In this document: one piece after another, positions 9,145 through 64,000 of the stretch | Layout: each line of letters begins with the position of its first letter | Numbering within the stretch: the first letter of the stretch is position 1 | Assembly: GCA_964016885.1 (NCBI GenBank) | Contig: OZ024742.1 | Span: 39,060,001-39,124,000 of the forward strand | Length of the DNA stretch: 64,000 nucleotides | From: Eledone cirrhosa | Taxonomy: Eukaryota | Direction of reading: 5' to 3' | Position numbers and translations under genes: made by a program | The notes under the pieces: generated by a model | Told to the model about the DNA's origin: nothing | What the model saw: only the letters and a program-made list of their open reading frames with translations | The model's database searches: none

Positions 9145-9145
<1 letters not shown>

Positions 9146-9221
<76 letters not shown>
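9146..9221. repeat. (TATC)n microsatellite at the 5' flank of Tx1 copy 1
   Basis: Direct reading. Confidence 0.97.
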
Positions 9222-9430
9222 CTGGGATGGACACACGCGTATAACTTGCTGAGTAAGTTTTGTTTAAATTTCTATAGAAATTCTTGTCTGATAACTTTAA
9301 TTTTTGTACCATTTTGTAGAGGGACTGCCAGGTCAAACTTTGATCTGGTCAGTCTCTCAAAATATTCTACGCCTTTAGGCGAAATAGTTAAAAAAAGTTT
9401 TTTCTTGTTGAAAAGTCAATATTTTTTTAA

Positions 9431-11212
9431 ATGGCCGAAGCTTCTTCACCAAAATTCGAAGGAGGAAAGGGGAAGATGAACTTACAGCTTCCCCCTGCCA
9501 CTGTCACAGTAGCAGAGGTCAAGAAGATAGGTCAGCCAGAGGAAGAATTCTCTCCACCTGTTAACCGACAACTTGACGTTACCATGGCAACAACCCAAAG
9601 AACCAACAGCAACAACAACAACAATGCGACGGTAGAAAACAACACCAATAACAATAACAATAACAACAACAAGACCAATAACGGTGACAACAACAACAAT
9701 GATAACAACAACACCACCAACGACAACAACAACACAAACAAACAAAATTTCTCCTTCGCCGAGACGACAAGGAAAACCCTCGACTATCTGCCAGTAGATA
9801 TAACAAAAGCGAAGGAGCTACTGGCGGATGCGAAAAAATATATAGTGTACGGGGAAAATGGTTCATTCACAATCCATTCCCCCCCGGAACTAAAAAGCCA
9901 GAGACTCCTAAACACGGTCATGTTTAGGACAATCTCGAACAAAAGTAAAAAACCAGCTCAACCATCACAGAGCGAGATAGAGCTGGTTTTAAAAGACGTC
10001 ATGAAGGACATCACCTTCATTCAGAAGGATAGACTCTACGGGAGTCTATCCATTCTCATGAAGGACAGGGACACAGCAGTGAAACTGTCCATCAAACCAA
10101 TCACATCCACCGCATACACCTTCTACCCTACGTACATGGGTAGAAGAACACAAAAAATAAAAATCCACACCATCCTGCCGATTATGGACATATGGTGGGT
10201 TTTGACAGGTTTTCTGGACCTGGAGGATGACATGCTGGTGTCCATGGGAAAGGCATCGGGTGACGCGTTCAGTGGAACGAGCCTCGAACTTGTAGTTCAA
10301 ATGAGGCCCGAAAGGATCGCCCAGATCCCTGAACGCGTCATACTGGATGATCTAACCTTCATCAACATTACCGTTGAGGGTAGACGGCCCTCGTGTTACC
10401 TCTGCGGAACCAGAGGTCACCTGAGGGCTGTCTGTCCCCAACTTAATAAGAAAACCCCAATCCTGCCTACACCACCAACAACTGCACAACCAACACAATC
10501 ACCACAACAACCACTACAAAAACAACCACCACAGCTCAAACCAAAACAAAACAATGTCCAACCCATCCCCTCCACTCAAAAAACAAAAACAATTTCCAAA
10601 ACACCCGTACCGCAAACACAACCCGAAAATATACCCCTCCCCTCCAACGCGGAAGATGACCCTAGTTCGTCGTCAGACGAGGAGGAGCACTTCCACACAA
10701 TCAAAAGAAAAAAAAGAAAACACACCTCAGACACACAAATGAAAAAAACCCCTCCCCAAAACATAACACTGACACCAACACAAAAGAGCTCACAACAGCA
10801 AACAAAAAACACCACACAAAAACAAAAACATGCATACACATACATAAATACAAGAAACAAAAAACTGTTAAACATTGTGTACAACAACAATCTAATAAAA
10901 ACACAAGGGCCTAACTTCACCCAGGCAGGGGATTTCCCCCACCTCAAAATGATTAAGGCCCCACAGGACACCTATAAAACTTTAAAAAACAATTTTAAAG
11001 AGGACGTGGGTCCCCCCTGCGTCGGGCCCATTAACCGAGTCCTCCTAAAAAACTATCCCACCCCCTCCCCAAACACCCTCACAACTCCAAGCTCCCCAAC
11101 CACACAACACACTGATGCCCCCACACTTCCACAAACCACCACCCCACCCAACAACCCATCCCCCACCCTAATGGAAATTGTGCAGCCCGATACCCGGGAC
11201 GCAGAGAGGTAA
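9431..11212 (+). CDS. Tx1-type ORF1p (gag-like nucleic-acid-binding protein), 593 aa
   Basis: CYLCGTRGHLRAVC zinc knuckle, SFAE motif, Asn-rich N-terminus and Pro/Thr/Gln-rich C-terminus; directly upstream of ORF2. Confidence 0.88.
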   Translation: MAEASSPKFEGGKGKMNLQLPPATVTVAEVKKIGQPEEEFSPPVNRQLDVTMATTQRTNSNNNNNATVENNTNNNNNNNNKTNNGDNNNNDNNNTTNDNNNTNKQNFSFAETTRKTLDYLPVDITKAKELLADAKKYIVYGENGSFTIHSPPELKSQRLLNTVMFRTISNKSKKPAQPSQSEIELVLKDVMKDITFIQKDRLYGSLSILMKDRDTAVKLSIKPITSTAYTFYPTYMGRRTQKIKIHTILPIMDIWWVLTGFLDLEDDMLVSMGKASGDAFSGTSLELVVQMRPERIAQIPERVILDDLTFINITVEGRRPSCYLCGTRGHLRAVCPQLNKKTPILPTPPTTAQPTQSPQQPLQKQPPQLKPKQNNVQPIPSTQKTKTISKTPVPQTQPENIPLPSNAEDDPSSSSDEEEHFHTIKRKKRKHTSDTQMKKTPPQNITLTPTQKSSQQQTKNTTQKQKHAYTYINTRNKKLLNIVYNNNLIKTQGPNFTQAGDFPHLKMIKAPQDTYKTLKNNFKEDVGPPCVGPINRVLLKNYPTPSPNTLTTPSSPTTQHTDAPTLPQTTTPPNNPSPTLMEIVQPDTRDAER

Positions 11213-11236
11213 GTGCCTTTTCTCTTCACCACCAAC

Positions 11237-14200
11237 ATGGCTATGCTAAGAGTAGGCTGTTTAAATGCGCGTGGCCTGGGCTCAACTTGGAAGCAAGCAA
11301 TGCTTCTAAATGACCTCAGGTCACAACGTATAGATGTGATGGTTATTTGCGAGGCCCGGATCAGCAACGTGCGACAGCTGGCCCCCACCTTTGATGACTT
11401 TGAGATGCACGCATCTCTCTGTCAGCCTGGAGGTGGGGGTGGAGTTGTCGTTCTGCTGCAAAAACATCTGGGTCTCGCAACACAGATGGTACATTTGGAC
11501 CCGGAGGGTCGACTAGTGGTTCTGGACCTTGGCAGTGGTAAAGGCGGAGCGTTTAGGTTGGTAGCCGCCTACGGCCCTTTCGGGTCAATGCGGCCGGACT
11601 TCTTCCATCGTCTGGAGACTTTTCTAGGGACGTCCCGCTCCTTGCTATTAGTGGGGGACTGGAATGGTATCCTAGATGCACGTTGGGACTACGTAGGGGC
11701 CTGCCCCGATAGAGAGGGGTGTAATAGCCTCAAAGGGTTAATCGGTCGATTTGACCTGGCCGATAGATATCGACTAGATTTTCCGACTGCGCCAACCTGG
11801 ACTTGGGCAAATCGTAGCGGATCATCTAGGTCGTACCTAGATAGGTTCTTAGTTAGAATTAAGGATAAGGAATTTTTAAGTTGTCCAAAAATGCGCATTG
11901 TTGGCTATTCAGACCACAAATTAGTGACCTGCATGGTCAACCTTGACAGAACTCATAGACAGGGCCCCGGTTACTGGAAGCTCAACTTGTCCTTGCCGGC
12001 AAGTAGAGCCTACAGGAATCGGATTAGTACGTTAGTTAAGGAACGGTTGACTGGAGCGATCGTCAACAGCAGGTGGTGGGTATCTCTAAAGAGAGAGATT
12101 AGAGTAGTCTCGATAGAATTTAGTAAGGTTCTAGCTGCGGATAGGAATAGGAAGGAAAGGGAGCTAATAGATAGAGTAGAAGAGGCAATTAGAAGCGGCG
12201 ACGTGGCCAGAGTGCTAGCGTCGAGAACGGCTTTGAGCCAGTTTTTCGACGCGAAGCACGAAGGCTGCGTTGTCCGAAGTAAAATACGTGCTCTAGGGAA
12301 CGAGGGGACCAAAGCTGTTAGCTGGGCCCGCGTGACAGAGGCCAACAGTGGAACTAAATCCACCATCCGGTCTTTGCGAGACCTGGATGGACGGGCGATT
12401 CTTGAGCCTAAGCAGATGTGTGAGGCCTTTCAAAGGCACTTTGCCCGACTGTTCGGGAGGGGCGGGGAGCCGGTTGGGAACGTGGACTTCGGTCCATACC
12501 TCGACGGCCTGCCGCGCCTCTCGGACAGGGAGGCGAAGTCCTGCGAGGAGCCGATTTCGGCCGCTGAGATAGAGGACGTGCTGAGCCAATGCGGCAAACG
12601 CAAATCCCCGGGTCTCGATGGTCTTCCTTACGAATTATATCTAGCTATGCCGGACTTGTTCCCCGATCTCCTCGAGGCGGTCTACTGCAACTGGCAACAG
12701 AACGGGAGAATTCCCTGTACTGTGACCAAGGGCGTAGTCACGCTAGTGAGGAAGGACGAGAACAAGGGGGACGAAATAAGTAACTTCAGGCCCATAACAC
12801 TGCTAAATACAGAGTTACAGATTTTGGCCAAGGTGCTAGCAAAGAGGTTGGCGCTTGTCGTGGGCAACCTGGTGGGAGATGCGCAGACATGCGCTATCCC
12901 GTCCAGGTCCATCCATGACAACCTCCACCTCATGCGATACATCATAGAGAGGGTTGGGAACGAACCCGGCTTTGGTGGGGCTCTGATCAACTTGGATCAA
13001 TCTAAGGCGTTCGATAGGGTCGACCATGGTTACCTGGATGCGGTGCTAGCGGCGGCAGGCTTCGGACCCGTTTTCAGGGGCTGGATCACTGCTATGCACA
13101 GCAGCCGCATCTGCTCTAGGGTCAAGGTGAACGGCTACCTCTCGGAGCCGTTCAAAATCGCGCGGTCCATCCGACAAGGGTGCCCTCTCTCCTCCCTTCT
13201 GTATGTATTGACTCTCGAGCCACTACTGCGGAAGTTGGAGTTGTTGCAGGGCATCCCTTTGGAACCGGGATTGCGGAAAGCGGTGTCGGCCTACGCCGAT
13301 GACGTGACAGTAATGGTGTCGACGGCCTCCGAAATCGAGGCGGTCGGCACCTTACTGGAGGAGTACGAAAAGTTCACAGGGGCTAAGCTGAACCGGGACA
13401 AGTCGATCGGTTTGCAACTCGGCACGTGGAGGGGCAGACCGATGCCCTCCGATAGCGTCGTCGGACGCTGGACGGAGGGCCCGGTGAAGTTGCTCGGGGT
13501 CTGGTTCGGACCGGACCTCCAGGTGGAGAAAAACTGGGCGGAGGTTACGAACAGAGTGTTTGCACTGACCCAGAAGTGGGCCAGTTGCAAACTATCCCTG
13601 AAAGGTCGGGCGGAGGTGGCGAACACCTACATAGCGTCCGTCATCTACTACCGCCTGACCGTAGTGCCCTGCCCAAGGGAAACCCTCACCAAGATGGAGC
13701 GCGCGCTCTTCCAATTCCTTTGGAAGAGGCGGGCTCCTATGGTGAGGAGATCCATCTGCTGTCAACACCCTTCGAAAGGAGGGCTGGGGATGCCGTGGCT
13801 AATGATGCGTAAACACGCATTAAGGCTACGGCACCTCTACGTATTCCTCACCGGACAACCGGTGTGGGCCTCGTTTGTGAGACGAACCTTTCCCAGACTC
13901 GTCTCACTCACCGAGCTGCAATCCTGGGTCAAGCAAAGACCGAGAAAACTGGGCGCCTGGCACACTGAGTGTGCCCAGGCGCTCACCGCCCTCTGGCAGG
14001 CGGATCCGGTTATCAGTGGAGACTCCACCGCAACATTCTATAGAGGGCTGGTACGCAGCAGGTGCGACGACGCCCTCGGAGAAGCCCTAGACATGGAGGA
14101 GGACGAACTGGCCAGCCTTTTCGGTAGGACATTTAGCCCGGGACCTATGGACAACTTCCAGAAGTCCCTGGCCTGGCAGTGCTACCGAGGGGCTTTACCC

Positions 14201-14674
14201 GTTCGAGAAAGGCTCTACAGACACGGGCGCCCGGGTAGGGACCCCGCCAAAAAGATCTGTCCCAGATGCGTGTGCGACGAGGAAACCGTTGCACACGCAT
14301 TAGTACACTGCTCGGGCGTAGCCGATCTGTGGGGCTATGTCGAACAACTGCTGTCAAGGGTGGGACCGATCCGGTTGACCACCGAGTCTATTGTAATGAT
14401 CAAGCCGCCTCCCCCCTTCAAAGATGAAGCAGAGGCGGTGTTTCTGTGCGTAATAGCCATGGCGAAAGAGGTTGTATGGTGGACGCGTCTGAAAGGACTG
14501 AGGTCGGGCACCTTTCTCTCTGGCCAACAACTGGTCCGTTTCTTCCGATATCATTTCGGAAGAAGGATCAGGATGGAGAGAGAGGTGCTGCACCCCAGCC
14601 GTTTCTATGAAAGATGGGTGAAAGTGGCGAGAATGGCCCGTGTGAATGGGCCTTCACTCTACATCAGACTATAG
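11237..14674 (+). CDS. Tx1/L1-type ORF2p: apurinic endonuclease + reverse transcriptase + C-terminal zinc finger
   Basis: CLNARGL, GDWN, SYLDRF, SDH (APE); PGYWKLN; KSPGLDG, FRPITLLN, LDQSKAFDRVDH, RQGCPLS, YADD (RT); CPRC..ETVAHALVHC. No stops. First ATG at 11237; the frame is open from 11213. Confidence 0.95.
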   Translation: MAMLRVGCLNARGLGSTWKQAMLLNDLRSQRIDVMVICEARISNVRQLAPTFDDFEMHASLCQPGGGGGVVVLLQKHLGLATQMVHLDPEGRLVVLDLGSGKGGAFRLVAAYGPFGSMRPDFFHRLETFLGTSRSLLLVGDWNGILDARWDYVGACPDREGCNSLKGLIGRFDLADRYRLDFPTAPTWTWANRSGSSRSYLDRFLVRIKDKEFLSCPKMRIVGYSDHKLVTCMVNLDRTHRQGPGYWKLNLSLPASRAYRNRISTLVKERLTGAIVNSRWWVSLKREIRVVSIEFSKVLAADRNRKERELIDRVEEAIRSGDVARVLASRTALSQFFDAKHEGCVVRSKIRALGNEGTKAVSWARVTEANSGTKSTIRSLRDLDGRAILEPKQMCEAFQRHFARLFGRGGEPVGNVDFGPYLDGLPRLSDREAKSCEEPISAAEIEDVLSQCGKRKSPGLDGLPYELYLAMPDLFPDLLEAVYCNWQQNGRIPCTVTKGVVTLVRKDENKGDEISNFRPITLLNTELQILAKVLAKRLALVVGNLVGDAQTCAIPSRSIHDNLHLMRYIIERVGNEPGFGGALINLDQSKAFDRVDHGYLDAVLAAAGFGPVFRGWITAMHSSRICSRVKVNGYLSEPFKIARSIRQGCPLSSLLYVLTLEPLLRKLELLQGIPLEPGLRKAVSAYADDVTVMVSTASEIEAVGTLLEEYEKFTGAKLNRDKSIGLQLGTWRGRPMPSDSVVGRWTEGPVKLLGVWFGPDLQVEKNWAEVTNRVFALTQKWASCKLSLKGRAEVANTYIASVIYYRLTVVPCPRETLTKMERALFQFLWKRRAPMVRRSICCQHPSKGGLGMPWLMMRKHALRLRHLYVFLTGQPVWASFVRRTFPRLVSLTELQSWVKQRPRKLGAWHTECAQALTALWQADPVISGDSTATFYRGLVRSRCDDALGEALDMEEDELASLFGRTFSPGPMDNFQKSLAWQCYRGALPVRERLYRHGRPGRDPAKKICPRCVCDEETVAHALVHCSGVADLWGYVEQLLSRVGPIRLTTESIVMIKPPPPFKDEAEAVFLCVIAMAKEVVWWTRLKGLRSGTFLSGQQLVRFFRYHFGRRIRMEREVLHPSRFYERWVKVARMARVNGPSLYIRL

Positions 14675-14937
14675 GTGAGGAAGATGAAAGACCAAGGGAG
14701 CACCCCTTCTCTGTGCTCCTGAGGAGAAGGGTTGCACACTTTTTTCGGGGGTGTGTGCGACCCCCCAAGGCGCCTCCTCTCTATTGAGGATTTTGTTAAA
14801 AATTTTATTTTTTGTTATATCTTATTTTATTTTTATATTTTGTTATTGCCTTCTCCTTATTGAGGACGCCTTTTTGTGTAAACTCCCCCCTTTGTACTTG
14901 TCCCACTTTTGATGCCCTAGTGGCAAATAAAAGAAAT

Positions 14938-14938
14938 A

Positions 14939-14988
<50 letters not shown>
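14938..14988. repeat. (TATC)n between the two Tx1 copies
   Basis: Direct reading. Confidence 0.97.
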
Positions 14989-14989
<1 letters not shown>

Positions 14990-15202
14990 TATACGTGTGT
15001 AACTTCGCGGAGAAGTTTCCGTTATTTTATGTAAGAAAAAAACGTGAGTTAAATTTTATATTATTGTGTAACTTGACCCCCCGTCTGGACCTTCAGGTGG
15101 TGGGTCAACTCATTTTCGCCCCTACAGGGGCGAAATATTCGTTTGAAAAATTTATTCTCCATCGAATTTTGGAAAAAATATCGTAAGAAGTTTGATTACG
15201 TT

Positions 15203-16997
15203 ATGAACGCTGCGTTTGGCGATAATGGTGGTGGAGAGTCGGTAAGACTACATAGCTCGCAGTCAACATCGTCTTCTTCCCTAGATACTATGGAGATGGA
15301 AAGACGAAATGAAATTGTAAAAACAAATTCATATCCAAACAACACAAATGACACCACACAGTACAATGACAACAAAAATAACAACAACAACACCAATAAT
15401 GATGATAAAAACAACAATGACAACAACAACAAAGAAAAAAATAAAGACAACACCAATAATACCAGCATCAAAGACAACAACAACAACAACACCAACACCA
15501 ACACCAAGGAAAATACGAATAATATCAACATCAGTGACAACAAGAATAACAACAAGAATAACAACAATAATGACAACACCACCAACACGGATAATTCCAC
15601 AAAGAAACCAAAAATCTCATTTGCACAGACAGTTAAAAAAAAGGAGGAACTGACATATCTCGACATAACAAATGCCGAACAACTTTTAAAGGACGCTAGG
15701 AGATATGTCACTTTCGAAAAAAATGGTGCTTTCAGCATCAATTCTCCGGTAGAAATTCGCAAGGAAACTGCTCTCAAAACGATAGTTTTTAGGACAGTTT
15801 CCAATTCTACCCGAAAACCAGCCAATTGTCACAGAAAGAAATTGAACTGGTTTTCAAAAATTCAATGAATGATGTTGCATTCATTCAAAGAGGCAAACTT
15901 TTTGGGAGTATTTCGGTACTCATGAAGGATCAATTGACGGCCCAAAATTACTCTGTGTCGCCAATTGTATCCAACCTGTATACCTTTTTCCCTACATACA
16001 TGGGAAAAAGGACACAAAAGATTAAAATCACGAGTGTCACACCAAAGGTGAACATATGGTGGATACTGTGCGGCTTCATCAATTTTGATGAAGACAGAAT
16101 ACTGTCAGTAGGAAAGTTCCCCGGAGATGTATTCAATGGGACTAGCATTGAAGTTCTGGTGCAAATGAGCCCAGAGCGAATAGCTATGATCCCACAACGT
16201 GTACTCCTGGACGGACTCACCTACATAAACTTTTCGGTTGAGGGTAGGCGGCCTTCATGTTACCATTGCTTTAGCAGGGGTCACCTGAGGGCTTCCTGTC
16301 CTAAATTAATGAGTAAAAAAAAGACTCTTCTGCCGACACCCATCAAAACAACACAACCATCAACACCACCACAACAACAACAACAACACCAACACACAAA
16401 AATAACCACAACAAACACAGTCCCACCCAACCCCACTCCACCTAAAACCACTGCAAAATCACATACAGACACAACAGCTCCCCAAGACATACTCCTCCCC
16501 AATCACACAGACGATGCAACAGATGAGGCTATCTCGCCATCACCCAGTGAAGACAAGGGAGAACCCCATCGCTCGAAAAGAAAGAAAAGACATCACAAAA
16601 GCAAAAAACCAGCAAACACTACCACAAACATACAACCACCAACACAAACAACAAAAACATCACAAACAAAACCCCCACTTCTTGAAAACAAAATACCTAC
16701 AACAACACGAAAGCACACACAAGAACTACAGACAAAAACAAGCACAACACAAGAAAATTACACTTACACTTATATAAACACTGAAAACAAAACACTAATG
16801 GAGACCATCACGAACGACCCTTCGGTGAAAACCGAAGAGAAAACTTTCGCCCACTCTATTAAAAATAACAAAAAACTGAACCTAAAACTGATTAGGGTCC
16901 CTATACAAACTTATAGGTCCCTAAAAGAAACATTTGAAAAGGATGTGGGGAATTCCTGCGTGAAACTACTTAACCACGTCCTTCTCAAATGTCCCAC
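15203..16997 (+). pseudogene. Frameshifted ORF1 of Tx1 copy 2
   Basis: ORFs 15143..15868 and 15826..17169 join by a frameshift near 15826. CYHCFSRGHLRASC knuckle present; C-terminus deleted. Confidence 0.85.
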
Positions 16998-17001
16998 AGC
17001 G

Positions 17002-20000
17002 AGCGACAGCTGGCCCCCATCTTCGATGACTTTGAGATCTACGCATCTCTCTGTCAACCGGGGTGTGGGGTGGGGGCGGAGTTGCCGTTTTGCTGCGGAA
17101 ACACCTGGACCTCGTAACACAGACGGTACATCTGCACCCGGAGGGTCGACTGGTGGTCCTAGACGTTGACGGTAGTGAAGGTGGAGCCTTCAGGCTGGTG
17201 GCTGCATATGCCCCATCCGGGACACCGCAGCCAGACTTCTTCAAACGTCTAGAGACTTTTCTGGGAACGTCCTGCTCCTTGCTTTTAGTGGGGGACTGGA
17301 ATGGAATCCTAGATGCACGTTGGGACTATGTGGGAGCATGTCCCGATAAAGGGGGGTGTAACAGCCTCAAACAGTTAATCGACCGATTTGACCTGGCCGA
17401 TAGATATCGACTAGATTTTCCGACTGTACCACTGTGGACGTGGACTAATCTTAGCGGAACATCTAGATCGTACCTAGATAGGGTTCTAGTTAGAAATAAG
17501 GATAGGGACATGTTAAGCTGTCCACAAATGTTCATGGTTGCCTATTCAGATCACAAACTAGTGCCCTGCATGGCCAACCTTGATAGAACCCATAGACAAG
17601 GACCCGGCTACTGGAAGCTGAACTTGTCGTTACCGACAAGCAAAGCCTACAGTAGACGGATTAGCACTTTAGTTAAACAGCACTTGACAGGGCCATTGTC
17701 AACAACAGATGGTGGTACTCTCTCAAGAGGGCAGTTAGATTAGACTCGTTAGTTTTTAGTAAAGAATTAGCGTTAGATAGAAATAGAACCGAGAAGGAAC
17801 TGGTAGATAAAGTAGAAGAGGCAATTAGAAGTGGCAACGTAGCCAGCGTGATAGCAACGAGAACGGCCTTGGACCAGTTCTTCGACGCAAAGCACGAGGG
17901 CTGCGTTGTTAGAAGCAAAATAGTGCTCTGAGAAACGAGGGAGCCAAAGCTGTTAGCTGGGCCCGAGTGACGGAGGCAAAAAGTGGCAACAAGTCCATGA
18001 TTCGGTCTTTGAAGGACCAAAACGGACGCGTGATACGTGAGCCGAAGCAGATGTGTGCGGCCTTTCAGCGGCACTTTGCTCGGCTGTTCGGGCGGGGCGG
18101 CACGCCGGGATGGGCTATGGATTTCGGTCCATAACTCGACGGCCTACCGCAACTCTCGGACAGCGAGGCAAAGTTCTGCGAAAAGCCGATTTCAGCCGCT
18201 GAGATAGGGGACGCGCTGAGCCAATGCGGCAAACGCAAATCTCCAGGTCTCGACGGTCTACCCTACGAATTTTACGTAGCAATGCCGGACTTATTCTCCG
18301 GTCTCCTGGAAGCGGTCTACTGCAACTGGCAACAGACCGGGAGAATTCCCAGTTCTGTAACCGGGGGCGTAGTCACACTAGTCAGGAAGGACGAGAATAA
18401 GGGGGATGACATAGGCAACTTCCGGCCCATAACTCTGCTAAACACAGAGTTACAGATTTTGGCCAAGGTGTTGGCAAAGAGGCTGGCGCTTGTCGTCGAG
18501 AACCTGGTGGGAGAAGCGCAAACATGCGCAATCCCGACCAGGTCCATACACGACAACCTCCACCTCATGCGATACATCATAGAGAGGGTAGGGTGTAAAC
18601 CCGGCTTCGGTGGGGCCCTGATCAACTTGGATCAGTCTAAGGCTTTCGATAGGGTTGACCATCGTTACCTGGATGCTGTGCTCGAGGCGGCAGGCTTCGG
18701 ACCCGTGTTCAGGGGTTGGATTGCTGCAATGCACAACAGCAACATCTGCTCAAGGGTCAAGGTGAACGGCTACCTCTCGGAGCCGTTCCATATTACGCGA
18801 TCCATTCGACAGGGATGCCCTCTCTCCTCCCTTCTGTACGTACTGACTCTCAAGCCACTACTGTGGAAGTTGGATCTATTGCAGGGCATCCCTCTGGAAC
18901 CGGGACTGTGGAAAGCGGCGTCGGCCTACGCCGACGACGTGACAGTAATGGTGTCGAGCGCCTCGCAAATCGAGGAAGTCGGCACCTTACTGAAGGAATA
19001 CGAAAGTTTCACAGGAGCGAAACTGAACCGGGACAAGTCCATCGGTTTGCAACTCGGATCGTGGAGAGGAGGCAAACCGATGCCTTCCGATGGTGTCGTC
19101 GGACGCTAGACGGAAGGACCGGTAAAGCTGCTCGAGGTCTGGTTTGGTCCGGACCTCCAGGTGGAGAAGAACTGGAACGAAGTGACGGCCACGGTGTATG
19201 CACTCACCCAGAAGTTGGCCGAGTGCAAACTATCCTTGAAAGGTCGAGCGGAGGTGGAGAACACTTTTATAGCGTCCGCCATCTACCACCGCTTGACCGT
19301 CGTGCCTTGTCCAGCCAAAACGCTCGCCAAAATGGAGCGCGCGCTCTTCCAATTCCTTTGGAAGAGGCGGGCTCCTTTGGTGAGAAGATCCATCTGCTGC
19401 CAACACCCTTCTAACGGAGGGCTGGGGATGCCGTGGTTGACGATGCGCAATCACGTGCTCAGGCTGCGGAATCTCTACGTATTCCTCACCGGACAACCGG
19501 TGTGGGCCCCGTTCGTGAGGCGAGCCTTCCCACGACTCGTCTCGCTGACCGAGCTGCAGTCCTGGGTCAAGCAAAGACCGAGGAAAATGGGCGACTGGCA
19601 CATCGAATGTGCTCAGGCGCTCACAGCCCTCTGGCAGGCGGACCCGGCGATCAGTGGAGACTCCACTTCGTCATTCTATAGAGGGTTGATCCGCAGCAAG
19701 TGCGACGACGCGCCGGTGAAACTCTAGGCGTAGAGGAAGATGAACTGGCCAGTCTGTTCGGTAGGACCTTCCGCCCGGGACCGATAGACAACTTCCAAAA
19801 GTCCCTGGCCTGGCAGTGCTACCGAGGAGCTCTACCAGTTCGAGACAAACTCTACAGACATGGGCGCCCGGGCAGGGACCCTGCAAAAAAGATCTGTCCG
19901 AGGTGCGTGCGTAACGAAGAAACCGTCGCGCACGCATTCATACACTGCCCGGGCGTCACTGACCTGTGGGGCTATGTAGAACGACTATTGTCGCGGGTGG

Positions 20001-20311
20001 GACCAATCCGGTTGACCACCGAGTCCATTGTCATGATCAAACCGCCACCCTCCTTCAAAAACGAAGGAGAAGCGGTTTTCCTTTGTGTGATAGCTATGGC
20101 GAAAGAGTTTGTATGGTGGACAAGGTTGAAAGGGCTGAGGTCAGACACCTTTCTCTCCGGCCAACAACTGATTCCTTTTTTCAAATACCACTTTGGAAGA
20201 AGAATCAGGATGGAGGGAGAGGTGCTGTACCCCAGCAAGTTTTATGAAAGGTGGGTGAAAGTGGCGAGAATGGCCCGAGTGAATGGGCCTTCTCTCTATA
20301 TCAGCTTGTAG
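17002..20311 (+). pseudogene. Disrupted ORF2 of Tx1 copy 2
   Basis: Fragments 17063..17743, 18282..19109, 19161..19727 and 19700..20311 align to copy 1 ORF2 with stops and frameshifts. The APE N-terminus is missing. Confidence 0.92.
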
Positions 20312-20736
20312 GTTGAGGAAAAGGAGGAGGAGAGGAAAGGAGCACAAACTCTTCGTACTCCTGGAGATGAGGGTTGCACATTTTTTCGGGGGTATGTGTT
20401 ACCCATATGAACTGTCTCCCCTATTGGGGAAAATCGACTAATTTTTTAAATTGCATTTGTGATAACATTTTACACGTTTTTATTGTATGTAAACTTCCCC
20501 TTTGTATTTGTCCCCTTCTTTTGTGCCCCTGTGGCTAATAAAGAAACATATCTATCTATTTATTTATCTATTAATTTATCTATTTATCTATCTATCGGTT
20601 TCAGTCAAAAGAAATCCCAAGTTCTAGTCCCGTAGAAGCCATTTCTATATTAAACTTTATGTTTACACTCTACTAATGTATTAAGTACCTTACTTACTGT
20701 CGTTACCCCCGTTGAACACAGGGACCCCCCATCCCC

Positions 20737-37167: not shown

Positions 37168-37960
37168 AACAATCATCAACACCACCAGCATCTCAAACAG
37201 CAGCAACAGCAACACCATAACCACTAGCACCAGCACCACCATCAGCAGCAGCAGCACCAGCAGCAGCATCACTACCACGACCACCACCACCACCACCACC
37301 ACCACCAGCACCATCAGCACCATCACCACCACCACCACCACGACCACCACCACCACCACCAGCATCACTACCACCACCACCATAATCAGCACCACCACCA
37401 CCAGCACCACCACCACCAGCATCACTACCACCAACACCAACACCATCAGCAACACCACCCACACAACAACACCCCCCCATCACCACCACCACCACCACCA
37501 CCACCACCACCACCACCACCACCACCACCACCACCACCACACCACCAGTATCACTACCACCACGAGTACCACCATCTCAGCCACCACCATCACCCCCACC
37601 ACCACCACCACCATCACTAGCACCACCATCAGCACCACCAACATCTCAGCCACCACCACCAGCAACACCACCAGCACCATCAGCACCCCCACCAGCATTC
37701 CCCACCACCAGTATCACTACCACCCCCACCACCATCACCACCACCACCACCACCACCTCCACCAGCATCACTACCACCACGAGCACCACAAACATCTCAG
37801 CTACCACCACAACCACAACCACCACAACCACCACCCCCAGCACGACCACCAGCAGCAGCACCACACAACAACAACAACAATAACAACAATAGCAACAACA
37901 ACAAGACAACTAATAATACTGCCAATATCACAAACATAACACCATTAACAACAACATCAA
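37168..37960. repeat. (CAC/CAG/CAA)n low-complexity tract
   Basis: Direct reading. Confidence 0.95.
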
Positions 37961-40900
37961 CAACAACAACAACCATAGCTCTAACAACAACAATAATAAC
38001 CATAGCTCTAACAACAACAACAAGAATAACCATAGCTCTAACAACAACAACAACAATAACTATAGCTCTAACAACAACAACAACAACAATAACCATAGCT
38101 CTAACAACAACAATAATAACCATAGCTCTAACAACAACAACAATAATAACCATATCTCTAACAACAACAACAACAATGACCAAAGCTCTAACAACAACAA
38201 TAACAATAACCATAGCTCTAACAACAACAACAACAACAATAACCATAGCTCTAACAACAACAACAACAACAATAACCATAGCTCTAACAACAACAACAAC
38301 AATGACCAAAGCTCTAACAACAACAACAACAATAACCATAGCTCTAACAACAACAACAACAACAATAACCATAGCTCTAACAACAACAACAACAACAATA
38401 ACCATAGCTCTAACAACAACAACAACAATAATCATAGCTCTAACAACAACAACAATCACCAAAGCTCTAACAACAACAACAATAACCATAGCTCTAACAA
38501 CCACAACAACAATAACCATAGCCCTAACAACAACAACAACAATAACCATAGCCCTAACAACAACAACAATAACCATAGCTCTAACAACAACAACAATAAC
38601 CATAGCTCTAACAACCACAACAACAATAACCATAGCCCTAACAACAACAACAACAATAACCATAGCTCTAACAACAACAACAATAACCATAGCTCTAACA
38701 ACCACAACAACAATAACCATAGCCCTAACAACAACAACAACAATAACCATAGCTCTAACAACAACAACAATAACCATAGCTCTAACAACCACAACAACAA
38801 TAACCATAGCCCTAACAACAACAACAACAATCACCAAAGCTCTAACAACAACAACAATAACCATAGCTCTAACAACCACAACAACAATAACCATAGCCCT
38901 AACAACAACAACAACAATAACCATAGCCCTAACAACAACAACAATAACCAAAGCTCTAACAACAACAACAATAACCATAGCTCTAACAACAACAACAACA
39001 ATAACCAAAGCTCTAACAACAACAACAATAACCAAAGCTCTAACAACAACAACAAAAATAACCATAGCCCTAACAACAACAACAACAATAACCATAGCCC
39101 TAACAACAACAACAATAACCATAGCTCTAACAACAACAACAATAACCAAAGCTCTAACAACAACAACAATAACCATAGCCCTAACAACAACAACAATAAC
39201 CATAGCTCTAACAACAACAACAATAACCAAAGCTCTAACAACAACAACAATAACCAAAGCTCTAACAACAACAACAATAACCAAAGCTCTAACAACAACA
39301 ATAACCATAGCACTAACAACAACAATAACCATAGCTCTAACAACAACAAAAACAATAAGCATAGCTCTAACAACAACAACAACAATAACCATAGCTCTAA
39401 CAACAATAACAAATACCATAGCTCTAACAACAACAACAACAATAACCATAGCTCTAACAACAACAACAATAACCAAAGCTCTAACAACAACAACAACAAT
39501 AACCATAGCTCTAACAACAACAACAATAACCATAGCTCTAACAACAACAACAACAATAACCATAGCCCTAACAACAACAACAACAATAACCATAGCTCTA
39601 ACAACAACAACAACAACAATAACCATAGCCCTAACAACAACAACAATAACCATAGCTCTAACAACAACAACAACAATAACCATAGCCCTAACAACAACAA
39701 CAACAAGAACCATAGCTCTAACAACAACAACAAGAACCATAGCTCTAACAACCACAACAATAACCATAGCTCTAACAACAACAACAATAACCATAGCACT
39801 AACAACAACAACAACAATAACCATAGCCCTAACAACAACAAAAACAATAACCATAGCTCTAACAACAACAACAACAATAACCATAGCCCTAACAACAACA
39901 ACAACAATAACCATAGCCCTAAAAACAACAACAACAATAACCATAGCTCTAACAACAACAACAACAATAACCATAGCTCTGACAACAACAACAATAACCA
40001 TAGCTCTAACAACAACAACAACAATAACCATAGCTCTAACAACAACAACAATAACCATAGCTCTAACAACAACAACAACAACAATAACCATAGCTCTAAC
40101 AACAACAACAATAACCATAGCTCTAACAACAACAACAACAATAACCATAGCTCTAACAACAACAACAACAATAACCATAGCTCTAACAACAACAACAATA
40201 ACCATAGCTCTAACAACAACAACAATAACCATAGCTCTAACAACAACAACAACAATAACCATAGCTCTAACAACAACAACAATAACCATAGCTCTAACAA
40301 CAACAACAACAATAACCATAGCTCTAACAACAACAACAACAATAACCATAGCTCTAACAACAACAATAACAATAACCATAGCTCTAACAACAACAACAAT
40401 AACCATAGCTCTAACAACAACAATAATAACTATAGCTCTAACAACAACAACAATAACCATAGCTCTAACAACAACAACAATAACCATAGCTCTAACAACA
40501 ACCACAACAATAACCATAGCTCTAACAACCACAACAATAACCATAGCTCTAACAACAACAATAACAATAACCATAGCTCTAACAACAACAATAACAATAA
40601 CCATAGCTCTAACAACCACAACAATAACCATAGCTCTAACAACAACAACAACAATAACCATAGCTCTAACAACAATAACAATAACCATAGCTCTAACAAC
40701 AACAACAATAACCATAGCTCTAACAACAACAACAATAACCATAGCTCTAACAACCACAACAATAACCATAGCTCTAACAACAACAACAACAATAACCATA
40801 GCTCTAACAACCACAACAATAACCATAGCTCTAACAACAACAACAACAATAACCATAGCTCTAACAACAACAACAATAACCATAGCTCTAACAACAACAA

Positions 40901-41680
40901 CAATAGCCGTAGCTCTAACAACAACAACAACAATAACCATAGCTCTAACAACAACAACAATAACCATGCTCTAACAACAACAACAATAACCATGCTCTAA
41001 CAACCACAACAATAACCATAGCTCTAACAACAACAACAATAACCATAGCTCTAACAACAACAACAATAACCATAGCTCTAACAACAACAACAACAATAAC
41101 CATAGCTCTAACAACAACAATAACAATAACCATAGCTCTAACAACCAGAACAATAACCATAGCTCTGACAACCACAACAATAACCATGCTCTAACAACAA
41201 CAACAATAACCATGCTCTAACAACAACAACAACAATAACCATGCTCTAACAACAACAATAACAATAACCATAGCTCTAACAACAACAACAATAACCATAG
41301 CTCTAACAACAACAACAACAATAACCATAGCTCTAACAACAACAATAACAATAACCATAGCTCTAACAACCAGAACAATAACCATAGCTCTGACAACAAC
41401 AACAATAACCATGCTCTAACAACAACAACAATAACCATGCTCTAACAACAACAACAACAATAACCATAGCTCTAACAACCAGAACAATAACCATAGCTCT
41501 GACAACAACAACAATAACCATGCTCTAACAACAACAACAATAACCATGCTCTAACAACAACAACAACAATAACCATAGCTCTAACAACCACAACAATAAC
41601 CATAGCTCTGACAACAACAACAATAACCATGCTCTAACAACAACAACAACAACAATAACCATAGCTCTAACAACAACACA
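37961..41680. repeat. 3.7 kb minisatellite, unit ACCATAGCTCTA(ACA)nATA (about 24-33 bp)
   Basis: More than 100 tandem units with a variable internal triplet count; source of the 932 and 1056 aa ORFs. Confidence 0.97.
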
Positions 41681-42023
41681 ATAGTTACATAAACAATATC
41701 AACTTTGGTAGTATTTGCTACTATTATTATTTTGTAAGTTTTCCAGAGATAAACTCCTCATATCTTGATACGTTGTTTTACTAACGGGGGTTAAAAAACA
41801 GACGCATTAACTCTTATCTTTGAAAGCTCTCGAGGAAACTCCTGCAAACACATGTCCCTATATAACCTCACTATATAACCACCACATAACTTCACTTCTC
41901 CGTTTTCCTCTTATCTTTGAAGAATTTTAAAATATCGCCTTAACTTGAAATGGGCGCGTGTTGGACTACCGTCGGTTCCAGTGTTTATACACGCACACAC
42001 ATACACACACATGCATATATATA

Positions 42024-56816: not shown

Positions 56817-57290
56817 GTTCTTTGGGTTTTATAATTTCACAAATTTTTACCAATAAAGAGAGAGAGTGGGTTTCTAACATAGACACAAGACTCATTGGAA
56901 TTTACACAACATCAACTAGGTAGATTATGTATGCATGCATGTGTAGATATAGATGTTATTGTATGTGTGGATGTATATGTTTTGAGTTGTATGTGTGCAT
57001 GTGTATATGCTTTGCATCTGTACATGTGTATATGCAGTTATTAGATGCTAAATTTTTGGAATGTTTTACATATTTTTACTGTTCCATTAATGGATTGTAC
57101 TTGTAATTTCCTAACTAGTTGTGTTCTTTCTGTTCCTGTGAAGCCTAGCTTCTCAATATTTGTATTGAGGCAGTAACTAACATACCCCAGTGCCCCAATA
57201 ATCACAGGCATAAATCTGAAGGTGTAATGAGGGTGGAGTATCTGCAGATTTCTCATCAGTTCTGCATAAATATTCTCCCTTTCGTTAATC
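56817..57290 (-). mobile_element. 5'-truncated R4-like element, second family, in (CATA)n
   Basis: ERENIYAELMRNLQILHPHYTFRFMPVIIGALG..KICKTFQKF; (CATA)n on both sides. Confidence 0.82.
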
Positions 57291-57456
57291 ATGTATGTAT
57301 GTATGTATGTATGTATGTATGTATGTATGTATGTATGTATGTATGTATGTATGTATGTATGTATGTATGTATGTATATCTCGTTCTCTTAATTTTGAGTA
57401 TATTTTTTTTGACCGGCCACCTTCCTGGTGGCAAGGTTGTAAAAGAAAAGTAATTG

Positions 57457-60400
57457 TCATCCCTTGAATCGCAAGAATGTTTTGCAAATTTTGAAGGTGC
57501 CAGCTATCGCAGCCATTTGTAGACTATGAATTAGGGAGCTGCGCTCTTTGTCCGCAAATCCAAGTTCAGTCATACTTTGGTCCAAGCGGGTTGGTATATA
57601 ACCCGTAGCTCCAATAATGATGGGTATGAAGCTAAAGGTGTATCTTGGATACTGGATTTGTAAACTCCTCATCAATGGTTTGTAGATGCCCTCCTTCTGC
57701 TGTATTTTTCTGACAACGTTTACATCAAGTGGTCAGCTGATCTCCACAACAGAACACGTTTTCAATGTGTGGTCCCAAACAACAATATCAGGCCGGTTGT
57801 GCTTTAACTTGGTGGCAGTTTTTATTTTCAGGTTCCACCAGTATTCCTTAGTGCCATCTGTCTCAATATATTCTTCCTCATTTGTTGTTAATTTTGTTTT
57901 CCGAAGTGCGTTCCAGATGGTTCTAGCTATCCCGCCGTGTCTCATGGGGAAGTAGTAGCGAGATGACATTCTTTCACAGCTGGCAACAATGTGGCTTACA
58001 TCCTCGATCTTTGTTTTACATAGCCTACATTTATTGTCAGCTGATGGCCCTCCCCTTTTGTGCTGCAGATATTTGGTAGGGAGTTCTTATTCCTGTATTG
58101 CATAGAGATATCCTTCAAGGTGTGATGTCATAAACTTGTCGGAACTCCATGCCAGGCTTTTTGAGTGGTTTATCCCCTTTATGGTCTGTGTTTTACGTCT
58201 CAAGTATCCATGCACAACTTTTTCTGTAAATTGGTAAATTTTTTCATCTTGTTTGAACATTGGATAGGATCTTCTGATTTCTCTGGGTGAGAGATTTATA
58301 TCAGGCTTTATTCCATATCTCTCCTCCAGTTCAGTGGCTATTCTAAAGATTCTTTTTTTCATGCTCATAAACCTGGGCAAGATGGTTGCCAACCATTTTT
58401 CCTCTGTTGAAGATGTTGCTTCAGTGTTACTATCCGGGTCTCATATGATGTTCATATGGATTTTAGACCCCGGCCACCTTCCTTACGTGAGAAGTATAGC
58501 CTATCCACATATGTTAAAGTTCCCAGTAACACTGAGAAGTTTGCGATTTCTAACATCAATCTCACTTCGTTCTTGCAATGACCAGTTCAGCAGGCCAAAT
58601 GTTGGCGTTAGAATTGGCACAGCATAAGTATTGTGTGCAATGTATTTGTTGTACGCTGACAGTTCTGATGACCATATTTTCTTTACTCTTCTGAGGTATT
58701 CAGTTCTGGTTCTCTCTTTATTTATGGGTCCATCATATCTGACATTCTCATCCTGTCCAAGATATCTGTAGTTGTCACCTGACTATAGAGGTTGTATTGT
58801 CAGGTCGTTCATCTCTAGATTTTTAGAGGAGGGCACTGCTCTTCCACGTTTTACTGCCAAATATGCACACTTGGACTCACCAAATTTCATTTTGATGTCT
58901 GTTGAAAATTGTGAGGTCCAATTGTTTCTTGATGTCATTGATATTTGGCCCATACAACTTCAGGTCATCAACAAAGAAAAGATGGGAGATACTTCTGGGC
59001 CCACTTCTTTCTTCACCTTGTTTCCTGAGTAGGTAAGGTAGTAGATTTAGTGAGAGAACGAAGGGTAGCACTGACAAGCTATCACCCTGAAAGATGCCTT
59101 TCTGGTAATGTATCTTATCAGTCTTAACTTGCTCCTTCTCACCTCTAAGGATCAAATTGGTGTACCAGTTCTTGGTCAGACGTTCAACAGCAGCAACCAG
59201 TGGTTGTGGGACTTTGGCTAACTGTAAAGCCTTAACAATCCACCCATGAGGTACACTATCAAATGCTTTTTGATAGTCCAGCCACACCACAGTCATGTTT
59301 CTGCGATTCTTTGTTGTTTTTTCTTGAATCATTTTATTAGTTAGTTGGTGATCTATGTAACCCCACGCCTCCCTCTTTCCACCAGCTTGCTCAGGTGTTA
59401 TGATGTTGTTGGTAGCACAGTGATCCTGTAAGAACAGGTTAAGGCACCCAGTATATAATTTATACATGATGTTTTGGCAGGCTATTGGGCGGTAATTTTT
59501 AGCAAGGGTGGTTTGGCTATTTTGGTGAATGAGGAGAGTAGTGGCAGTTGATAACCATCTGGGCAGTTCTTGTGTGCCTTTAATGGTTTCTGTAAACAGC
59601 CGTATGAGATCTTGCCGATAGAAAGTGAAATTCTTCAACCAGTATCCTGTAATGAGCTCTGGGCCTGGTGATTTCCTATTCGACATTTTCTGTAGAGCTG
59701 TTTCCAGTATTGACCCATCTATGTCATATTGTTTTGTCTGGACATGTTGGCAGTAATCCTGTTCCAGTTCTTTTAGCCAATTAGTTTGTCTGTTGAATCC
59801 GTCATCCGTTTCCCATACAGATCTCCAGTAGCTCTCAACCTGTTCTTTTGAATGGGTGTCATTTACAGAGATTGAGCTTTTGCCACTGAAGCTGCGATAA
59901 ACTGATTTAGGATCTCTGGCAAACAATCTATTTAGCACTTGTCGTTTATGTGCTGTTGACTTATATTTTAGTCTTTCTGTTGTAGCTGTGAGTTGTTGTT
60001 TCAACTGGTGTAATTTGGAGTTTAAAGTTTTAAATTTTGTATCTCCAAATCGTCTCTGTAACTTGTTCTTTAGGTCTTCCTGGTGTCGTGTGAAGTTGCT
60101 CTCTATGTTGCATTTCATAACGACTGCGATGTGTGAGATACTTCGTCTCAGGGACAAAATTTTGGTTTTTAAATTTCGCATCCACGCTGGTTCAGGCTTT
60201 TTGTTTGTATCTTGATTGCGTGGTTTTAGATGTTTGTTATATGATAGCAATGTGACAGCTGAAACATATAACAAAATGTTAAGCGTTTCAAATGTTTCTA
60301 CACGTTTATATCGTATAGCCTTCAGATAATTGTCAGCTATTTCGTTCACCGCTTCCAATTCCAATTTAGTGGGTTCTTTACTGATTCTGGTGTTGTATGG

Positions 60401-60948
60401 TCTGTCACTCACATTAAGGCTGTGTATCTCTTGAAACATATCGTCCCATATCACTTGTAAGGTGTCCACAAGTTTTTGGTGTCTGTTTGTACAGTAGAGT
60501 CATGAATTTCAGCCTCGTTGTTGATGTAGTGACAATTACTACTAGAGTTAGCTGACCTTTCTCGCTGTTCTTCAGTGGAGGTGGGATGGATTTCAGCAAA
60601 ATTGTTGGTGAACTGTTCACTGTTAGATTTAGCTGGCCATTCTCTTTGTCTGTCAGTGGAGGTGGGGTGGTTGTCTACAAGGGCTGTATTTGTAGTATCA
60701 CTCAATTCCGTTAGATGTATCAATTTACATCTAATGATACGTTTTGCCTGTTCATTTAAATGCTTTAGAGAAAAGTCTAATTCTGGGTGTTTGGAGTTCC
60801 ATAAAGTTTTTAGCCTTTGCATAAAACCGAACTTTTGGGGTTCAGATTGTTTGTATGCTTCATATAATTCTTTGTTGAGCTTGTAGCTCCACTGTATACA
60901 ACGGTTGTTGTTGCGATTTGGTCGAAGGAGACTTGTACGTTTTGCCAT
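57457..60948 (-). pseudogene. Disrupted single ORF (RT + REL) of the R4-like element
   Basis: Fragments 60451..60948, 58877..60469, 58087..58392, 57733..57969 and 57457..57675. Confidence 0.9.
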
Positions 60949-62789: not shown

Positions 62790-64000
62790 AAACCACTGGG
62801 ATTGAAGAACCCCTAGCCCTTGTCAGGGCATTCTTCTAGGAGAAGGCATCTCAGGAAACTGGGTTAACTCCGATATAAAACCTGCGGCTCAGTAGTTACC
62901 GATGTTGTTGATCTTTTCTTCTTTTCGGTTTATAGCTACTGTCGCTCAGAGAGTGGGATTGGCTCAGTGCACAGTCTTTCCTCACTTTAAAAATATTCAT
63001 CACGCACAGGCATTGCACGAGTGCAATAATAATTATTAATAGTGTACTATTATTATTATTATTATTATTGTTACTATTATTATTACTTTTTTTTTTTTTT
63101 TCCAATTCAATGAAGTTCCAGAACAATATAAAAGAGATAATTGGCAATTTAGGTTCTGGAACAAAAAAGATAATTGGCAATAAGGGCAGGGGCCCAAGGT
63201 TATCACAGCCTGGGCCCGCTCGTCATCGTGCCATTGTAATAGAGCCAAACAAGGCATTTAGTCTTGGCTGCTGGAACGTACGAACGCTGCTTGACAGCGA
63301 TTCCTTGGGGCGTCCTGAACGAAGGACCGCTCTTGTTGCAAAGGAGCTTCGACGTTACGATCTTGACATCGTGGCTTTATCTGAGACGAGGTTAACTGGA
63401 GATGGTCATCTTACAGAATTTTGTGGAGAATATACATTCTTCTGGAAAAGAAGAGATGAAGGAACCAGAAGAGAGGCTGGGGTAGGATTTGCTGTTAAGA
63501 CTGTTCTTGTGAATAAATTAGAAGAATTCCCAGTAGGGATTAGTGAGCGTCTTATGTCCATGAGAATTCCGCTGGACAAACGAAGATATGCGACCCTGGT
63601 GAGTGTGTATGCTCCAACTATGATTTCTGTCGATGAAGAAAAAGTGTCCTTTTACCATGCCTTGAAAGGTGTTTTAAGAAATATCCCTCAAGCAGAGAAA
63701 GTCATCGTGCTTGGTGACTTTAATGCTAGAGTGGGTAGGGATTTTAACACATGGAATGTAATCGGAAGGCATGGGGTGGGAAAGTGTAACAACAATGGTA
63801 TGCTCCTGCTGCAGATGTGTGAGGAGCTGGATCTGTGTGTTACCAACACCATGTTCCAACAAAAGAACAAATTCAAGACCACATGGATGCATCCTGGATC
63901 TAAGGAATGGCATCTTTGGACTACGTCCTAGTCAGGATGCGTAACAGACAGGATGTGTAGTGTGTTCGTGCTCTTCGTGGAGCTGAGTGCTGGACGGACC
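62790..64000 (+). mobile_element. 5' part of an RTE (BovB-like) LINE, defective, running off the window
   Basis: APE motifs CWNVRTLLD, PERRTALVAKEL, IVALSETR, SVYAPT, LGDFNARVG, TTWMHP. Frameshift near 63915 and a stop near 63960. The 5' UTR is shared with 43998..44205. Confidence 0.9.

Follow-up and report, generated by a model that had tools for sequence, protein, structure and literature searches.

Two LINE copies bounded by TATC tracts

The window, a stretch of 64,000 nucleotides of Eledone cirrhosa DNA, contains two LINE copies lying head to tail on the forward strand and bounded by three tracts of TATC type in a single orientation, as the initial annotation had described. The first tract, (TATC)19 at 9145-9220, is best read as target plus duplicated target, with some units possibly being element-borne. 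It precedes copy 1 (9221-14938; 5,718 bp), a full-length young LINE of family F1 that comprises a 5' UTR with predicted hairpins (9221-9430), ORF1 of 593 amino acids (9431-11212), ORF2 of 1145 amino acids (11237-14674) and a 3' UTR (14675-14938) whose conserved terminal block includes GCCC..GTGGC, AATAAA, GAAA and two subfamily-specific bases. Both reading frames are free of stops, in keeping with the earlier description of this copy as intact, and the element ends AATAAA-AGAAA-TA without poly(A). The tract between the copies, (TATC)12 at 14939-14986, begins in the fixed phase NN/TATCT (a slash marks the junction) and is followed by copy 2 (14987-20548), an older, frameshifted full-length LINE of family F2, behind which a degenerate TATC tract at 20549-20596 begins CA/TATCTATC.

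ORF1 of copy 1 contains a CCHC zinc knuckle of the form C-x2-C-x4-H-x4-C at residues 322-335, a feature of the Tx1 clade, although not exclusive to it because plant L1 has one too. A Pfam search with ORF1 gave no match and a homologue search found none; its look-alikes in the Atlas carry zf-CCHC, with RRM and ZCCHC3 domains in lower-ranked rows. ORF2 matches the endonuclease and reverse transcriptase (RT) profiles of Pfam, together with a weak zf-RVT match, and alignment with human L1 ORF2p recovers the APE endonuclease motifs (N10, E39, D141, D202 and H227). The RT motif YADD occupies residues 686-689, and the C-terminal cysteine motif reads C-x2-C-x8-H-x4-C. The closest solved structure is human L1 ORF2p (E 2.8e-48, residues 8-857), R2 reaching just E 1e-19, and among named proteins the nearest belongs to Argonauta hians (67% across the RT region), in keeping with an octopod host. 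The predicted fold of the 5' UTR has a z of -2.84, with 3 of 200 shuffles equally stable, and inverted repeats resembling hairpins recur, by eye in the alignment, in the UTRs of other families. A consensus fold of the family UTR alignment returned no structure, the fold of the 3' UTR was not significant (z -1.74), and no ribozyme or known RNA of Rfam matched the element near its gathering score. Four contig runs contain related DNA, which speaks for presence as DNA and not for expression.

Copy 2 is 83.8% identical to copy 1 in nucleotides across the ORF2 part and 65% across part of ORF1; aligned to copy 1 it shows frameshifts and stops, and relative to three full-length relatives it has lost about 290 bp at around 16993, on the ORF1/ORF2 boundary. 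The ORF1 proteins of the two copies are 43-45% identical and the copies belong to separate families, which bears out the earlier view of them as independent insertions rather than a tandem duplication. The 40 best matches to the head of copy 1 are 99-100% identical to it, and ten other F1 copies match it at 99.93-99.98% across 5.7 kb. Among 36 elements traced end to end in 39 stretches around the best F1 head matches, a sample biased to young copies, 18 have both ORFs whole. In comparison, the head of copy 2 is 92-95% identical to other F2 heads, and 39 F2 stretches, 28 of them fully traced, yielded no whole ORF2 and none longer than 834 amino acids. Copy 1 is hence the younger of the two, and because F1 copies are near-identical while F2 copies are more diverged and have no whole ORF2, we infer that it landed in a tract ahead of the already-present copy 2. 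The intact ORFs and near-identical copies further suggest that F1 may be active.

Analysis of neighboring elements revealed at least eight families with distinct 5' heads, ORF2s about 60-95% identical to that of copy 1, and ends of the form AATAAA..NN/TATCT or similar (the alignment of these 3' ends includes one misplaced row, L254). Assignment to the non-LTR retrotransposons of the L1 group follows from the two ORFs of copy 1, from an ORF2 that combines an APE endonuclease, RT and a C-terminal cysteine motif, and from 5' truncation and target-site duplications, the latter in 29 of 36 truncated copies. In a midpoint-rooted RT tree of 59 rows, the families with the GATA motif form one clade (14 rows) with P0003 and Argonauta as sisters. 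The octopod clade occupies a separate branch within a 46-row group (support 96/94) that also holds APE elements inserted in U2 and U1 sites and turtle and fish proteins, and this group lies apart from the plant L1 and Phallusia rows. Membership in Tx1 is therefore likely, as judged from these U2- and U1-inserted relatives and not from curated Tx1 references.

Elsewhere in the window, a broken LINE on the minus strand (57440-60948) has an RT recognized by Pfam and, by eye, an apparent restriction-like endonuclease motif; its 3' end adjoins (ATAC)n at 57291-57376, with a similar 3' end occurring once more near 57060, and it is possibly another microsatellite-associated LINE. An ORF with an APE endonuclease domain at 63110-63931 is likely the start of a LINE cut by the window end. 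A 3.8-kb array of 27/30-bp units within 37220-41683 includes an ORF of 932 amino acids (38176-40974), rich in Thr, Ile, Ala and Leu and devoid of Pfam matches, which is either mucin-like or a chance frame.

A single fixed-phase 3' junction

Across the 3.0-Gb genome, an exact-pattern search recovered 4,042 3' ends of the copy-1 type, of which 3,328 continue as NN plus TATCT, and 16,792 of the copy-2 type, of which 13,614 continue as NN plus TAT[A/C]T; reversed-pattern controls gave 0-7, and TATCT occupies 0.14% of positions in the non-element DNA of the window. Thus, thousands of copies share one fixed-phase 3' junction in one orientation and without poly(A). In 220 distinct 3' ends (pooled, partly from best-hit loci), T1, A2, T3, C4 and T5 are each present at 95-100%, with TATCT opening 198 flanks and TCTCT 6. 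The 5' side was of particular interest, since a general lack of TATC there would have spoken against the targeting proposed earlier for the pair. TATC lies within 35 nt upstream of 28/30 F1 heads (the first 30 of 388 by position), as against a background of 0.7%, in 25/30 best-hit F2 heads, with three more in (TC)n, and at 29/36 5' junctions of truncated copies. With 81-82% of 3' ends and 28/30 heads in one flank type, these elements are target-specific in the sense of PMC4494074, whose available text sets the mark at more than 20%. The remaining 18-19% or so of 3' ends fall off the junction patterns, among them ends on (TA)n and ends of a family in a 72-bp repeat.

The first 30 F1-type 3' ends by position start with TATC (24), TATAT (5) or TACCT (1), and just five of them have three or more perfect repeat units. 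The target is accordingly the short motif TATCT(AT), which is most abundant in (GATA)n tracts, and not a long array as such. The original proposal of GATA-microsatellite targeting thus stands as regards the fixed-phase 3' junction and the TATC at 5' junctions, but not as regards the array itself.

Simple repeats abound in this genome, and one could imagine that the elements insert unspecifically and merely survive in repeat-rich DNA, or that the pair in the window is a tandem duplication; an array around C3:217.90 Mb, with identical junctions at 5,764-bp spacing, does look duplicated. We consider this exceedingly improbable for the families at large and for the pair, given that thousands of copies, 99.9%-identical ones included, share a single orientation and a phase fixed to the base, and given the ORF1 divergence between the window copies; that the youngest copies keep the fixed phase refutes unspecific insertion. 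As to the array itself (C3:217.89-217.91 Mb, L025-L027), its F1 copies likely arose by tandem duplication and not by new insertions.

A second alternative, already raised in the initial annotation, is that the element itself makes (TATC)n as a tail, with the 5' tracts representing tails of earlier insertions or slippage. The absence of poly(A), the TAT that starts nearly all 3' ends, and the seven of 36 truncated copies with 3' TATC in the absence of 5' TATC are what such a tail would leave. The same 36 truncated copies, both ends of which are in view, divide into 13 whose duplication extends into non-repeat DNA, 16 whose duplication lies inside pure TATC and seven that lack one. The duplications into non-repeat DNA start at TATCT and measure 8-20 bp (e.g. 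16 bp at L050), and because they run into unique DNA, the TATC must have been present before insertion. At none of the 13 such sites does the 3' tract exceed the 5' tract in length, and 13/13 have gained no tail; likewise, insertions into (TA)n or TACCT sites have gained no TATC, and 16/30 heads have upstream TATC before which no element tail was detected. We therefore regard the tail as very unlikely and largely refuted already, the TATC repeat being a pre-existing target. There is room for occasional RNA-borne TATC units at non-target sites, because seven of the 36 truncated junctions lack both TATC and a duplication, as do several longer truncated copies, some of them mis-chained by the script.

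One class of tract end occurs 17,845 times genome-wide, and the first 30 of these by position (25 distinct sites; a small sample from one chromosome end region) were inspected for occupancy. Eleven of these 25 long tracts adjoin an equally oriented member of the families, in seven cases behind a 3' end, and a similar share of F1 heads (12/30) directly follow another element. As every insertion would leave target on both sides, later elements may land beside earlier ones and so build trains; in these small samples the head-to-tail trains are explained by saturation of a self-renewing target, 11/25 long tracts being occupied. Another dispersed repeat ends right before TATC or TA tracts at L011, L031, L129, L164, L225 and L239, which then serve as LINE landing sites.

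Proposed insertion mechanism and a sister family in a 72-bp minisatellite

In light of these junctions, we consider it probable that these L1-type, likely Tx1, families owe their fixed-phase join to TATCT(AT) to an endonuclease nick on the GATA strand that primes reverse transcription. A putative APE nick on this strand at the motif would initiate target-primed reverse transcription, and a second nick would follow about 11-20 bp downstream. On either side of the element the transcripts may include a few bases of adjoining repeat that pair with the target, in the manner suggested for R1; AATAAA stands 6-7 bases ahead of the 3' junction, and cleavage 10-30 nt past it would fall within the tract. 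The two bases ahead of TATC vary by subfamily or internal lineage, and the TC before the head tracks internal lineage. Truncation at the 5' end is common in the F1 type (388 heads for 4,042 3' ends). Of 25 full-length copies whose 3' flank is informative, eight have a matching upstream duplication, and at L405, L062, L068 and L091 extra TATC lies between duplication and head. Long head tracts borne on the RNA were also considered. Full-length copies have longer 5' tracts than truncated ones (p=0.007), but the two classes do not differ in 5' minus 3' tract length (p=0.15) or in the frequency of unique duplications (4/17 full-length versus 11/34 truncated), so that such tracts are unsupported beyond a few units.

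A sister family, F10, with at least 327 ends, surfaced in 20 stretches around 3' ends lacking TATCT. Its ORF2 is 82-85% identical to that of copy 1, and it is nested among the GATA families in an unresolved branching order; its copies are 96-99.9% alike, with both ORFs whole in 1/18. All 30 of 30 F10 3' ends read NN/ACTCT within a 72-bp minisatellite, and 18/18 full-length copies have one exact 5' junction at which 7 target bases are omitted. Truncation within 1.5 kb affects 1/30 F10 copies as against 13/30 of the F1 type, and the sole truncated copy (L456, n=1) has a duplication. Mostly full-length F10 copies, often in trains, occur at C1:4.22-4.26 Mb (L407-L410), L411-L426 and L427-L456, and lie toward chromosome ends among the matches listed. 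In a more distant relative (L423), 57% identical at the end of ORF2, the 3' end adjoins TTATTATT, which might be a third target.

The 72-bp site and the GATA motif share TCTAT in the same register, yet the 72-bp site holds 24/24 F10 ends and 0/255 other ends. This raises the alternative that the endonuclease is permissive, recognizing a TCTAT core, and that target sequence at the RNA ends, by pairing with the nicked DNA, mainly decides between GATA and the 72-bp repeat, in which case target preference would be inherited from the donor site. Consistent with this are the nesting and ORF2 similarity of F10, the lack of cross-use, the 7 target bases missing at all 18 full-length 5' junctions as against the duplication in the lone truncated copy, and the beta-B6/B5 loop of the endonuclease, WTWTNRSGTSRS, which is the same in F10 and the GATA family F7. 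This loop has been implicated in target reading (PMC1950540), and because it matches that of a GATA family, a purely endonuclease-driven model must invoke other residues. Such residues are at hand, as the F10 endonuclease has about 14 family-specific ones, including a G to W change beside the conserved YAP motif. Furthermore, endonuclease swaps between SART1 and TRAS1 switch specificity, according to the available text of PMC7265360, and insertions of the GATA families occur at sites that offer nothing but TATCT or TATAT for pairing. On balance we hold a choice governed by the RNA ends to be unlikely, and favor priming from an endonuclease nick at the motif as set out above. Broader still, and in our view doubtful, is a scenario of an octopod Tx1-like radiation with a permissive TCTAT-cutting endonuclease and a target inherited via the repeat at both RNA ends: its GATA branch would fill nearly half of the long tracts, adding units with each insertion, a sister branch would have moved to the 72-bp minisatellite with its DNA-reading loop unchanged, and the core may descend from the U2-site TATCT used by Keno.

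Comparison with known target-specific LINEs

Microsatellite targets on record include TC, TTC, TTCC/TTTC, AC, ACAY, TAA and TG (PMC4494074, PMC3812793, PMC4640811, in the parts available), and a search of the literature on LINE targets found no GATA-targeting LINE, though Repbase or Kojima and Fujiwara 2004 may already list one. Octopus vulgaris has 13 recently active L1-Tx1 families, for which the available text of PMC13282606 states no targets; the corresponding portions of PMC9004415 and PMC8967140 hold no target information. The microsatellite-targeting habit of Tx1 elements is known, and (GATA)n is a real new target for this habit, joining a short list at an unusual scale of more than 20,000 ends and 11/25 sampled long tracts occupied. 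This bears on the growth of GATA tracts and on octopod microsatellite markers. The mechanism of APE-type target choice has been called not well understood (PMC3812793, in part). With ORF2s at 82-85% identity and no shared site in 279 ends, intact F1 and F10 provide a pair for mapping it, which could separate the contribution of enzyme residues from that of the RNA ends and is of relevance to LINE-based gene insertion tools.

The closest comparisons by habit are Kibi on (TC)n, Koshi on (TTC)n and the crocodilian Tx1 families on (TTCC)n/(TTTC)n (PMC4494074, PMC3812793, in the parts available). All are APE-type LINEs of the L1 group specific to a microsatellite with a pyrimidine-rich top strand. 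Compared by description, the octopod families differ in their target, TATCT(AT)/(GATA)n, their mollusc host, the coexistence of at least eight families and their abundance; the flanks expected of Kibi and Koshi are rare among them (TCTCT at 6/220, TATCT at 198/220).

Keno is a member of the Tx1 clade that targets U2 snRNA (PMC4640811 and PMC4494074, as far as available). At the metagenome loci L309 and L315, APE elements are followed by U2 from AGUAUCUG, the Keno site, and at L318 by U1. A metagenome scan for the targets of the sister group at 40-54% returned distant relatives only. In the RT tree, the supported group that holds the octopod clade also takes in the elements of L309 and L315, whose junction, poly(A)/GTATCTG, contains TATCT. 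However, the octopod clade branches apart from the U2-site elements rather than within them, the two are 36% identical in RT, and the U2-site elements have poly(A). Descent from Keno was accordingly set aside, the pentamer TATCT being all that is shared. In this genome, about 48 U2 snRNA genes stand in tandem at C3:307.35-307.45 Mb with 2,219-bp spacing, and the ten U2 copies inspected of 70 matches are all uninterrupted.

Mechanistically, the nearest analogue is R1A of the Drosophila melanogaster group, although it belongs to the R1 clade and targets 28S rRNA (PMC2718515, in the portions available). It too lacks a poly(A)-type junction, and target sequence has been suggested to flank its transcripts on either side; its full-length copies show a small precise deletion, truncated ones a duplication, and some a duplication with extra upstream target. 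These "insertion site rearrangements" resemble the duplication with extra TATC at L405, L062, L068 and L091. The octopod pattern agrees with the R1A model of target-bearing transcripts, for which SART1 and R1Bm offer parallels (PMC7265360, available text). For the family in the 72-bp repeat, Tx1L of Xenopus, which inserts into Tx1D by means of a sequence-specific APE endonuclease and likewise belongs to the L1 group, provides an analogue; its endonuclease loop has 11 residues, whereas that of the octopod group has 9, as in human L1 (PMC1950540, in part).
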